Shown: positions 4,205 through 10,746 of the stretch, piece after piece
How positions within the stretch are numbered: the first letter of the stretch is position 1
How the letters are laid out: every line of letters starts with the position of its first letter
Source: a virus
Lineage: Duplodnaviria; Heunggongvirae; Uroviricota; Caudoviricetes
Direction: 5' to 3' (one strand)
IMG/VR virus record: IMGVR_UViG_2660238360_000005
Length of the DNA stretch: 12,652 nt
Notes under the pieces: model-generated
Seen by the model: only the letters and a program-made list of their open reading frames with translations
Told to the model about the DNA's origin: nothing
Database searches by the model: none
Translations under genes and position numbers: made by a program

Positions 4205-4396
4205 TTAAAGACCTGCCGGGATTTCGATATTATCCTGGTGAATAACTTTATCGACCGGGTAACAGTTACCGGGAATTTTCTGTTCGGTTGCTGCAGTCAT
4301 ACACTCCTGCATTGTCCTGTGAACACTGACTGCAATATCAACTGGCTCTCCGGAAACAAGAAAAACTGTCAGAACAAGCACAAATGCTGAATTCAT
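4205..4396 (-). CDS. Hypothetical small secreted protein (63 aa, N-terminal signal-peptide-like segment)
   Basis: ATG at 4396 preceded by AAGGA with 8-nt spacing. N-terminus MNSAFVLVLTVFLVSG is signal-peptide-like. Start overlaps the stop of the upstream ORF in an ATGA arrangement (4393-4396). Confidence 0.5.
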   Translation of the reverse strand: MNSAFVLVLTVFLVSGEPVDIAVSVHRTMQECMTAATEQKIPGNCYPVDKVIHQDNIEIPAGL

Positions 4397-4581
4397 TGTG
4401 CACATCCTTTTGGCATCAGACGTAAACGAGCCAGCATTGAAACAATGCATATTTTATTTAATAGCTCCCGTTCTTGTTTTCTCTTGTTAATGGCATCTTC
4501 AGTAAATACTGGGTTACTGATAGTGACACCAATTTCAAAACAACCTTCAGACGTATTAACGTTTGGTAATAACGTTTTCAT
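4393..4581 (-). CDS. Hypothetical small protein (62 aa)
   Basis: ATG at 4581 preceded by GAGGA with 7-nt spacing; stop overlaps the start of the downstream small ORF (ATGA), implying translational coupling. Confidence 0.45.
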   Translation of the reverse strand: MKTLLPNVNTSEGCFEIGVTISNPVFTEDAINKRKQERELLNKICIVSMLARLRLMPKGCAQ

Positions 4582-5148
4582 TATCGCGTCCTCAACAATG
4601 AATTTTGTGATGCAGTGCCTGGTGCCTCCAGGTGACGTTAACCAGTTAACAATTAACGCCGGATACAGAGAATCCACCCATAACACTGTTTTTGGTTTTA
4701 ACTGTTCCGCGTGCGCTCAGCCGCATTCACCACATCACAAAATTCACTTTAAAAAGGGCGGCAGAGCAGTCACGGAGTAAAACTGATACCGCCAAACGTC
4801 ACCAGAAAATTGATAACAGAGGGCGTTGCAGCGGGGTTGTCACTTAAGCGTATGGTCAACCTGACAACCCGGTGTCCTCAACGGGGAAGAAATAACCCCG
4901 CCATACTTACCGCCGCACCATTTCGCGGGTTGCCACAACCGGAAGCGCACGGTCGACGAAAATTTAACGACAGGCTATCTATGAACCAGCTACCTCGCCG
5001 TGCGCTTTCGCGTTATGGTCTGACTTTTCAGGGAAATATCCTTTCAGTAAACTGTCAGTGCCGGATGCTCACCCGTGTCCGGCGCACGCACTCCACCTCA
5101 CCCGTGGAGAACTCCTTAATTACCAACCTTAGCTTCGTTGGTTAGCTA

Positions 5149-5367
5149 TTAACGCGGGTATGTAATCATTCTGGCAATGCTTAATGCCGCTGCTTTTTCC
5201 AGATTGGTGATATCCTGCTCCAGAGCGGACAGATTTTCAGCCTGCTTAGCCCTGGCTTCATTGGCCCATTTCAGATCCTGCGCTGCATTAATTTTCTGGC
5301 GCATCCACTCATAAAGTTCATCATCGGTATAGTCTGGCGCGATGATGACGGGTTCTCGTTTCTGCAT
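5149..5367 (-). CDS. Hypothetical early leftward-operon protein (72 aa)
   Basis: ATG at 5367 with GAGGAA 5 nt upstream; third gene of a compact minus-strand operon. Protein has a predicted helical, charged middle segment. Size and position are reminiscent of Rac kilR, but I cannot confirm the sequence. Confidence 0.55.
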   Translation of the reverse strand: MQKREPVIIAPDYTDDELYEWMRQKINAAQDLKWANEARAKQAENLSALEQDITNLEKAAALSIARMITYPR

Positions 5368-5974: not shown

Positions 5975-6613
5975 TTAAATATCTTGTTGAATTTTAAAGC
6001 ATACGCCCAATATGCAAGATAGATCATCCAGCATAATTGAAGGGTAGCGAGGATTCGTGGGGACTAAAAGAATATCCGGCCCTTCTATCTCCAGTTTACG
6101 AATGACAGGTGTTGTGGTCCCTTTGGGTAAGGCAAGGACAATATTTCCTGGTTGTACGGTTCGATCGGGATCAACAAAAACTGTTGAACCATTTGGGATG
6201 GAAACTCCCCCACCAGATGTTGACATACTGTCACTCTCTAGAACAACTGCAAAGGTATTGACCGGGATTTCTCCGACAAGCTGCACACAAGAGGTTATTG
6301 AGGAATTTTTCATATAATCACTCCAGCTTGCTGCCTGCTGAAGTGATAGTAGCGGAACCGTTTTTATCGGCGGTAAAGATAGATCAAGCGAATCACCTGT
6401 ATTTAACTCTCCTCCATTAAGAAGCCAATTTTCGTTTACTTTCAATATTTTTGCCAGTGAACTTATGTAACGCGAGGACGGCGCTCCTCCACCGTTCATC
6501 CATTGACTTACGGAGCCTTTTGATGCGCCAGTGCCATTGACAAGGTCTTTGCCTTTCAGGTTTAGCGCATGCATACGTTGGGTTATGCGTTCAGATATAG
6601 TTTGCTTGCTCAT
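5975..6613 (-). CDS. CI-type prophage repressor (N-terminal XRE-type HTH, C-terminal S24 LexA-like peptidase)
   Basis: 212 aa. HTH segment ..LKGKDLVNGTGASKGSVSQWMNG..; C-terminal ..ESDSMSTSGGGVSIPNGSTVFVDPD.. (Ser) and ..PVIRKLEIEGPDILLVP.. (Lys) fit the S24 Ser/Lys dyad. Divergent from the cro-like gene. No SD upstream of the ATG, compatible with a leaderless PRM-type transcript. Confidence 0.9.
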   Translation of the reverse strand: MSKQTISERITQRMHALNLKGKDLVNGTGASKGSVSQWMNGGGAPSSRYISSLAKILKVNENWLLNGGELNTGDSLDLSLPPIKTVPLLSLQQAASWSDYMKNSSITSCVQLVGEIPVNTFAVVLESDSMSTSGGGVSIPNGSTVFVDPDRTVQPGNIVLALPKGTTTPVIRKLEIEGPDILLVPTNPRYPSIMLDDLSCILGVCFKIQQDI

Positions 6614-10567: not shown

Positions 10568-10624
10568 GACTGCGGGTGCTTGAGGCTATCTGTCTCAGGC
10601 ATGAACACCAAAAGGCAGATAGAG

Positions 10625-10692
10625 AAAAGCCCCAGTTAACATTACGCGTCCTGCAAGACGCTTAACATTAATCTGAGGCCATATCTATGCGA
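10625..10692 (-). ncRNA. sok: Putative Sok-like antisense RNA (boundaries approximate)
   Basis: Minus-strand promoter-like TTGACC (plus 10724-10729), 18-nt spacer, TAATCT (plus 10700-10705) inside the mok-like frame would start an antisense transcript near 10692 covering the mok-like start and leader, as in hok/sok loci. 3' end not defined. Confidence 0.3.
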
Positions 10693-10746
10693 CACATAGA
10701 GATTAGCCTCTTACGGACCGAAAGGTCAAGGAGAAGCAGGCTATGA
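10687..10746 (+). CDS. mok-like short coupling ORF (19 codons)
   Basis: ATG 10687; its TGA stop (10744-10746) overlaps the hok ATG (10743-10745). Much shorter than the mok frame as I recall it from plasmid R1, so the assignment is tentative. Confidence 0.35.
   Translation: MRHIEISLLRTERSRRSRL

Follow-up and report, generated by a model that had tools for sequence, protein, structure and literature searches.

The stretch analyzed here, positions 4582-5148 of a 12,652-nucleotide (nt) viral DNA (Caudoviricetes, IMG/VR record IMGVR_UViG_2660238360_000005; the whole DNA is called the window below), is, with a probability that we put at about 0.9, the untranslated spacer between ydfC and dicB in the dicBF (early-left) operon of a Qin-like lambdoid prophage of Escherichia coli, and it encodes the Hfq-dependent small RNA (sRNA) DicF. 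DicF is the main functional element of the spacer. The DicF locus and its processing leader are already known, and a modest novelty lies only in a conserved 115-nt domain located upstream of DicF.

A covariance search against Rfam, which an earlier note on this DNA had proposed, gave a full-length match to the DicF family above the cut-off. That is, RF00039 matched positions 4807-4756 of the minus strand with 76.7 bits against a gathering score of 48 (E = 7e-16), and the match covered model positions 1-52 of 52. In the alignment row the sequence is identical to DicF of E. coli K-12 MG1655. The characteristic features of this sRNA were also found, namely a single-stranded 5' seed, a stem-loop in the Rfam structure line, and GCCGCCC followed by UUUUU at 4755-4751, and the match lies in the spacer of a lambdoid early-left operon with ydfC upstream and dicB downstream. 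In K-12, DicF is made in vivo by ribonuclease E (RNase E) and ribonuclease III (RNase III), binds Hfq and represses ftsZ (PMC5069750, PMC9438474, PMC10448788). The earlier note had not recognized DicF (4756-4808), and none of the repeats listed in it falls inside DicF. Its suggestion of a structured non-coding RNA agrees with the presence of DicF and with the finding that the 9-base-pair (bp) inverted repeat that it reported is a helix of the conserved, covarying domain described below.

The region was 100% identical to that of E. coli 13E0767 and 98.3% identical to that of the K-12 derivative C600. Related sequence occurred in 4369 of 5426 complete E. coli genomes (about 80%), with a median of two copies in each. 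The layout annotated for the Qin prophage of MG1655 (dicA, ydfA, ydfB, ydfC, 340 nt, dicF, 174 nt, dicB, ydfD) equals that of the window. Thus the stretch and the dicBF spacer of K-12 Qin have the same gene order and the same spacing, the spacers are 98% identical, and DicF is identical. Pfam confirmed DicB, YdfD (DUF1482) and YdfA (DUF1391) in the window. The identical locus of 13E0767 adjoins rspB and runs on into exonuclease, excisionase and integrase genes (RefSeq). The prophage of the window likewise continues to apparently intact genes for these three proteins beside rspB, whereas in K-12 Qin there are pseudogenes and an IS2 interruption.

[quoted passage not shown] The real start codon of dicB is the ATG at 4581, and the Pfam DicB domain covers residues 1-62 of that product; the open reading frame (ORF) of 97 amino acids (aa) that begins with GTG at 4393-4686 is merely an upstream extension of dicB. 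Since dicB starts at 4581 and not at 4686, the untranslated stretch is 4582-5148. The earlier note had placed a GC-rich stretch without a convincing ORF at 4687-5148. The ORF-less stretch is real but longer (567 nt), and its GC content is raised, but only mildly (0.51-0.54 versus 0.39-0.48 in the flanks). When the RNA of the 567-nt spacer was folded by minimum free energy (MFE), the z-score was -4.35 and none of 100 shuffles was equally stable. The features of the locus are listed in Table 1.

Table 1. Positions of the features of the ydfC-dicB spacer and its flanks (window coordinates unless a locus is named; +, plus strand; -, minus strand)
Feature	Position	Strand	Basis or remark
Untranslated spacer, dicBF operon	4582-5148 (567 nt)	-	ydfC stop codon to dicB start codon; gene order
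DicF sRNA, 53 nt	4808-4756; terminator U-run 4755-4751	-	Rfam RF00039; homologous position in MG1655 annotation
Conserved structured domain ("module b"), 115 nt, five helices	4825-4939	-	alignments, covariation
Closing stem of the domain	4939-4932 / 4832-4825	RNA sense	
Hairpin A of the domain	4928-4924 / 4917-4913	RNA sense	
Pseudoknot helix of the domain	4911-4909 and 4906-4901 with 4855-4847	RNA sense	
Hairpin B of the domain	4900-4896 / 4886-4882	RNA sense	
Hairpin C of the domain	4870-4862 / 4842-4834	RNA sense	the 9-bp inverted repeat
Single-stranded linker, partly A/U-rich, GCCCUCUGUUAUCAAU	4809-4824	-	sequence; fold
Putative RNase III hairpin, long, imperfect	4940-5010	-	base is the 10-bp duplex AAGCGCACGG 5007-4998 / CCGUGCGCUU 4952-4943; I3; MFE fold
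Long-range duplex, about 20 bp, arms 4746-4728 / 4617-4599	4599-4746	-	I1 (19 nt, 89% complementary); MFE fold extends it
Hairpin GCCGGA / UCCGGC, 12-nt loop with one CACGGGUGAG copy	5060-5083	-	sequence, MFE fold
Hairpin CUCCAC / GUGGAG, loop GGGUGAG	5091-5109	-	sequence, MFE fold; holds one CTCACCCGTG copy, the other being in the hairpin above
ydfC (72 aa), upstream flank	5149-5367	-	RefSeq annotation of identical locus; phrog_1744
dicB (62 aa), downstream flank	4393-4581	-	Pfam DicB PF05358, 1.9e-40, full length; RefSeq
54-aa ORF, RefSeq hypothetical protein WP_001331716.1	4981-5145	+	ATG-started part of the 111-aa TTG ORF
STnc100 sub-threshold matches in other loci	L005 2034-2223; L128 1749-1956; L003 2842-2961		

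DicF and the processing of its transcript

The 5' end of DicF is made by RNase E (PMC10448788, PMC5069750), and there are two kinds of 3' end, one set by the Rho-independent terminator of DicF itself (53-nt form) and the other by RNase III cleavage (72-nt form) (PMC5069750, PMC9438474). A 190-nt DicF species is RNase III-dependent and builds up once RNase E is inactivated (PMC10448788). No internal promoter was found for dicF in K-12, in which both terminated and read-through transcripts occur (PMC10448788). In line with the lack of an internal promoter in that work, our consensus scan of the stretch detected no sigma-70-like promoter on its minus strand. The same scan, which covered promoters and terminators, did not flag the DicF terminator, because the loop of this terminator exceeds the limit of the scan.

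The earlier note had considered a processing site in this region, and the sites at which RNase III and RNase E are reported to process the dicBF transcript indeed map here (PMC10448788, PMC5069750). When 190 nt were counted back from the DicF 3' end and U-tail, the 5' end of the 190-nt precursor, and with it the RNase III cut, fell at about 4940-4945, which would be the foot of the long imperfect hairpin. In relatives the base of this hairpin is kept and its apical part varies. The RNase E cut would fall at the 3' edge of the linker, between 4809 and 4808, as judged from the dicF annotation of MG1655, and the RNase III site for the 3' end of the 72-nt DicF (about 4737) would lie in the 5' arm of the long-range duplex. 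This duplex encloses small conserved hairpins, its arms are kept around variable inserts in relatives, and its 3' arm stops just upstream of the Shine-Dalgarno sequence of dicB. Both mapped RNase III positions are inside the two longest duplexes, I3 and I1, which were found independently by the repeat search and by the fold.

The processing of the transcript can be considered as follows. Transcription from the DicA-repressed promoter would pass through ydfABC into the spacer, and RNase III would cut the foot of the long hairpin (about 4940-4945) to give a 190-nt pre-DicF headed by the 115-nt domain. RNase E would then cut the A/U-containing linker at 4809/4808 and yield the 53-nt DicF, of which the 3' end would be the intrinsic terminator (4756 plus the U-run). 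In read-through transcripts, RNase III would cut the duplex of about 20 bp, giving the 72-nt DicF and a dicB messenger RNA (mRNA) with a short leader. The enzymes and the RNA species are those published for K-12, and we infer their placement on the window and on the particular helices.

The RNase III cut mapped in this way is 1-6 nt ahead of the closing stem of the 115-nt domain. Because the cut is so near to the closing stem, the 190-nt precursor would be essentially the domain, the 16-nt linker and DicF. We also noticed that the RNase III position given in PMC10448788 as '813/814', together with the transcripts of 1,146 and 1,608 nt, does not fit, in any single numbering, a product of 190 nt whose end is the DicF terminator. 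The 190-nt size, and not this position, was used for the mapping.

DicF is listed first among the 3'-untranslated-region-derived and intra-operonic sRNAs in PMC9438474. Like SroC and CpxQ, it is cut from a longer mRNA by RNase E, and its end is an intrinsic terminator, here inside an operon. Unlike SroC and CpxQ, DicF uses two RNase III duplexes and is preceded by a conserved domain that travels with different sRNA cassettes.

A perfect 9-nt complementarity (I4) was found between the DicF seed (GGUGACGUU, 4795-4803) and the downstream part of the spacer (AACGUCACC, 4631-4639). We rejected it as a functional pairing, as it is at chance level (about 0.6 expected per 567 nt) and the downstream copy is kept beside cassettes other than DicF. 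The pairing is probably due to chance, although in read-through transcripts it could mask the seed.

The 115-nt domain and the protein-coding readings

The starting point for the domain was the 9-bp inverted repeat of the earlier note (GGGTTGTCA 4834-4842 / TGACAACCC 4862-4870, with a spacer of 19 nt), which is exact and was recovered by the repeat search (I6). By a rough estimate, chance would give about 0.09 perfect inverted repeats of 9 bp with loops of at most 50 nt per 462 nt. The same note had listed a 10-nt direct repeat, CTCACCCGTG, at 5068-5077 and 5097-5106, and a 6-bp inverted repeat (GCCGGA 5060-5065 / TCCGGC 5078-5083). Both are likewise exact, and the former was recovered by the repeat search (D6). 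About 0.1 occurrences of the 10-nt repeat and about 5 of the 6-bp repeat are expected by equally rough estimates, and the 6-bp repeat alone is not significant. Taken as single-sequence observations, the 9-bp and the 10-nt repeats are borderline. The comparison with relatives that the earlier note had suggested revealed compensatory base changes in the 9-bp helix, and no intact ancestral ORF was found.

The 9-bp repeat forms hairpin C of a domain of five helices, in which the 3' strand of a pseudoknot helix sits in the loop of hairpin C. In a MAFFT alignment of 56 distinct sequences, which was not structure-fitted, 94.9% of the cells pair and 12 of 33 pairs are changed on both sides. The corresponding value of shuffled controls was 3.8±1.3 (0 of 500 reached the observed one, a count that is not to be read as a probability), and slid controls gave at most 6. 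A model-fitted alignment of 82 sequences, which takes in deliberately sought variants of the pseudoknot, showed pairing in 96.1% of the cells and compensation in 15 of 36 pairs; the shuffles gave 4.3±1.4 (0 of 500) and the slid controls at most 5. Among the helices, hairpin C had 6 of its 9 pairs compensated, for example in Izhakiella (GGGUAACCA/UGGUUACCC) and Citrobacter (GGAUUGUCA/UGGCAAUCC), and hairpin B had all four Watson-Crick combinations at one position. Hairpin A had no covariation support.

The pseudoknot helix is absent from the model, yet it was independently chosen by RNAalifold. Two of its pairs are compensated (in the P1 lineage and in L187/L192), and G-U intermediates occur as well. 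We regard a pseudoknot in the domain as probable, not proven. For its extension, the GGU/GCY pairing chosen by RNAalifold fits better than UAAG/CUUA, which was rejected because column 102 varies between U and C against an invariant A. An alternative pairing, UGGCAACCCG/CGGGUUGUCA (I7), which competes with hairpin C, was also rejected, as it is not kept in the P1 or cdtI-type copies.

No family of Rfam 15 covered the 115-nt domain, in the window or in the other loci tested. A permissive Rfam search of the window and of P1, cdtI, F1055, phiSTEC1589 and Rac gave nothing over 4809-5148; only DicF and sub-threshold matches to STnc100 were obtained.

The conservation of the stretch also bears on whether it is, or was, protein-coding. 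A long gap within a tightly packed operon could hold a decayed gene of the leftward operon, as the earlier note had considered, or hide a small functional ORF on the minus strand, and minus-strand ORFs of 22-36 aa do exist. As that note had said, long ORFs are lacking on this strand: none of at least 40 aa was found between 4686 and 5149, and the longest has 36 aa. However, no ORF in the stretch matches Pfam, homologues differ within the 36-aa ORF by insertions or deletions of 1 nt (CCCCG versus CCCCCG), which fall in a loop, and the conservation tracks base-pairing, not codons. No intact gene was found in relatives among the E. coli genomes, the phage collection and IMG/VR, in which non-coding modules are swapped instead, and the region is treated as untranslated in PMC5069750. 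We therefore think that a coding minus strand, decayed or functional, is extremely unlikely.

On the plus strand, the ORF with a TTG start that the earlier note had reported is present (111 aa, 4810-5145). This ORF, or its ATG-started part of 54 aa, might be a real gene antisense to the dicBF operon, since the 54-aa protein is annotated by RefSeq in the 100% identical 13E0767 and the frame is open in most close relatives. The MG1655 annotation, on the other hand, lacks it, and it has no Pfam match. There is no promoter-like site just upstream of it, the sole plus-strand site in the stretch (4646-4673) being far from 4981. Among relatives, almost every substitution is amino acid-changing, an internal stop interrupts one copy, and each swap of RNA modules alters the C-terminus. 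The same bases are accounted for by conserved RNA hairpins of the minus strand. These results indicate that the ORF is probably spurious and not a gene, and a genuine antisense gene here is scarcely to be expected. In the RefSeq record of 13E0767 (NZ_CP020107.1, in which 6001-6462 corresponds to 4687-5148 of the window), dicF is not annotated and the doubtful antisense 54-aa protein stands there instead, whereas MG1655 has dicF annotated and not the 54-aa protein.

Distribution and possible functions of the domain

A BLAST search of phages showed that 4939-4817 is conserved by itself in cdtI, Stx2c phages, Ayreon, 2H10, Salmonella phage F1055, P7 and P1, and phage mEp460 also carries the 115-nt domain. 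Pattern scans detected the domain in more than 120 IMG/VR contigs and in prophages of E. albertii, E. ruysiae, Shigella, Citrobacter, Serratia symbiotica, Trabulsiella, Erwinia tracheiphila and Izhakiella; the remaining pattern hits in genomes are random matches to the pattern. The domain thus spans at least six enterobacterial genera in addition to P1/P7. The covariance model of the domain found exactly one copy per locus, and found no match in Rac-SA53, HK022 and phiSTEC1589-Stx1c.

All intact copies examined were in a repressor-controlled early operon, and each had an exchangeable unit resembling an sRNA with its terminator directly 3' of it. In the Qin and mEp460 types the domain is behind ydfABC, in cdtI it is about 320 nt past pL and ahead of any ORF, and in F1055 and Erwinia it follows a cI-like gene. 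In P1 it is about 45 nt past the C1-controlled promoter P1ban; that is, the P1 copy is near its promoter, whereas that of the window is behind three genes. A hairpin with a U-run was found 36-118 nt 3' of the domain in 54 of 60 distinct flanks. Inspection of the other six by eye revealed long-stem terminators in four, a decayed copy in one, and an unclear case. Between the domain and the U-run lies a unit that is not constant; it is DicF or one of several other types of seed and terminator.

The copy in P1 is in the leader of the ban operon, in which a 'dicF-like region' is annotated (misc_feature 68791-68892, NC_005856). The covariance model of the domain scored 93 bits there over a 115-nt domain with a terminator after it, and the helices are compensated (GCAUGG/CCAUGC, CUGGG/CCCAG and GUUGCCA/UGGCAAC). 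The Rfam DicF model gave no match in P1 even at E up to 0.1, and none in cdtI. What the P1 'dicF-like' annotation resembles is the domain upstream of DicF, not DicF itself.

Several further observations were made around the domain. In L004 (2124-2175) and in IMG/VR loci such as L007, L023, L087, L113, L117 and L147, sRNA-like cassettes replace DicF between the conserved domain and the duplex arm AAAGUGAAUUUUGUGAUG. These cassettes have other 5' seeds and other terminator hairpins, as if the seed were exchangeable, and several contain C/A-rich stretches like CACAACAA. A start codon preceded by a Shine-Dalgarno sequence (AGGAG...AUGUUCUACCG) lies in the long loop of the terminator hairpin that follows the domain in F1055, Erwinia, Izhakiella and one IMG/VR contig, and the ORF that starts there continues through the 3' arm and the U-run (L127 1640-1710; L177 about 4680-4760; L183 about 2520-2600; L196). 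Such terminators could represent translation-coupled control. In cdtI-type loci there is also a second conserved element directly past the terminator, a long inverted repeat (ACAAAACAGAGAAGAGCA ... UGUUCUUCUCUGUUUUGU) that is kept from E. coli to Salmonella, Erwinia and Izhakiella (L004 2170-2290; L127 1700-1810; equivalents in L177 and L183).

With respect to function, the reading that we prefer, purely as an inference, is that of a conserved leader acting in cis in sRNA cassettes of the DicF type. The domain would fold autonomously, hold the linker unpaired so that RNase E has access to it, and form a cap at the 5' end of the precursor.

Several points weigh against the picture drawn above. 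First, phiSTEC1589-Stx1c has a DicF-like sRNA without the domain, which means that the domain is not required for such an sRNA. Second, the support for the pseudoknot is thinner than that for the other helices, and several lineages have uncompensated A-C mismatches in it. Third, the homologues were gathered with sequence patterns that fixed some of the columns, and many of the sequences are close relatives, so that the shuffle control overstates the significance. Finally, the putative cleavage positions are those of K-12, carried over to the window through homology (98% identity) and counting.

A different and speculative function would be that of an antitermination site, which the earlier note had listed among its options. 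The domain would then be a processive antiterminator acting in cis like put of the N-less lambdoid phage HK022, which works without protein factors. It would make RNA polymerase read through DicF-type and later terminators in phages without N, and it may represent an undescribed class of cis-acting phage RNA, not a passive part of the DicF precursor. The domain is indeed always upstream of an intrinsic terminator ahead of the main genes of the early operon (P1, cdtI, F1055, Erwinia), and its invariant loops GGCGGUAAG and CAGGUUGACC suggest a specific partner. It shares with HK022 putL/putR a structured nascent RNA, a repressor-controlled early operon, terminators downstream and an N gene that was not detected, although this likeness is one of position only. 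There is no sequence or structural similarity to put: blastn found no meaningful similarity to the HK022 immunity region, and the covariance model found no match in HK022. Furthermore, the domain is probably a pseudoknotted five-helix structure whereas put has two stem-loops, and a genome holds a single copy of it, the rightward operon having none, as compared to two copies of put.

The presence or absence of N bears on the same question. In the window, mEp460, cdtI, F1055 and Erwinia, none of the ORFs upstream of the domain matched an N antiterminator family in Pfam or PHROGs, and all of them are of unknown function; this is weak negative evidence. N proteins vary widely, and a profile search can easily overlook them. 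The single N-encoding relative examined, phiSTEC1589-Stx1c, lacks the domain, yet it keeps the flanking modules, that is, the upstream hairpins, the RNase III hairpin, the DicF-like sRNA and the downstream duplex. However, the contrast between N and the domain rests on this one phage, and Rac-SA53 also lacks the domain as judged by the covariance model. In addition, a leaky terminator would be enough to give the mixture of terminated and read-through transcripts in K-12, with no special mechanism. Taken together, we consider antitermination by the domain rather unlikely.

The pseudoknotted multi-helix fold with its invariant unpaired nucleotides, the intrinsic terminator that follows it, and the location of the P1 copy in a 5' leader might also point to a riboswitch-like sensor, of which the ligand-dependent folding would govern the formation of the downstream terminator. 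The length of the spacer that separates domain and terminator, however, lies anywhere between about 10 and about 45 nt, its sequence is not the same in the different cassette types, and the terminators of P1, F1055, cdtI and DicF are unrelated in sequence. No conserved alternative pairing between the domain and a terminator arm was seen on inspection, with no systematic search made. A sensor of this type is thus very unlikely, and the cis-acting leader remains the reading that we prefer.

Other elements and the meaning of the locus

Two hairpins lie near ydfC, that of the 6-bp repeat (5060-5083) and its neighbor at 5091-5109, and many relatives keep their stems with varied loops, while others have whole hairpins exchanged. 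The 5091-5109 hairpin is kept in many relatives and is replaced by other hairpins in some. In the 5060-5083 hairpin the stem is kept and the loop is variable (CACGGGUGAGCA versus CACGGAUAAGAA) in relatives, one of which is the N-encoding phiSTEC1589-Stx1c. Both hairpins show CACGGGUGAG in or at the loop, which explains the 10-nt direct repeat.

The Rfam family STnc100 (RF02076) aligned over its full length to the dicF-dicB spacer (4549-4758, minus strand) with 34.4 bits, which is below the cut-off of 47 (E = 1.5e-5). It also aligned over its full length to the equivalent spacers of Rac-SA53 and phiSTEC1589, and in all loci the scores were below the cut-off (30.8-43.8 bits, E to 1e-6). The match in P1 was partial and upstream of tciA. 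The STnc100 family may be broader than its present threshold allows.

ARAGORN found no genes like those of transfer RNA or transfer-messenger RNA in the window. Elsewhere in the same prophage, the sok antitoxin RNA (Rfam RF01794) was found at 10574-10745 on the plus strand with 106.7 bits against a cut-off of 59, that is, a toxin-antitoxin locus of the hok/sok type.

In conclusion, an apparently empty gap of 460 bp turns out to be an sRNA locus that is among those known for longest in bacteria. The 190-nt 'long DicF' of Northern blots would correspond almost exactly to the conserved, covarying domain plus DicF. The domain accompanies other sRNA cassettes too, and it is present in the ban leader of P1. 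It is the sole element of the stretch worth following up, and its control of termination or of sRNA maturation is only a lead at present. If the domain does control read-through or sRNA maturation, this would explain how lambdoid phages without N express the genes beyond the sRNA terminator, and the domain would represent a new class of cis-acting RNA.

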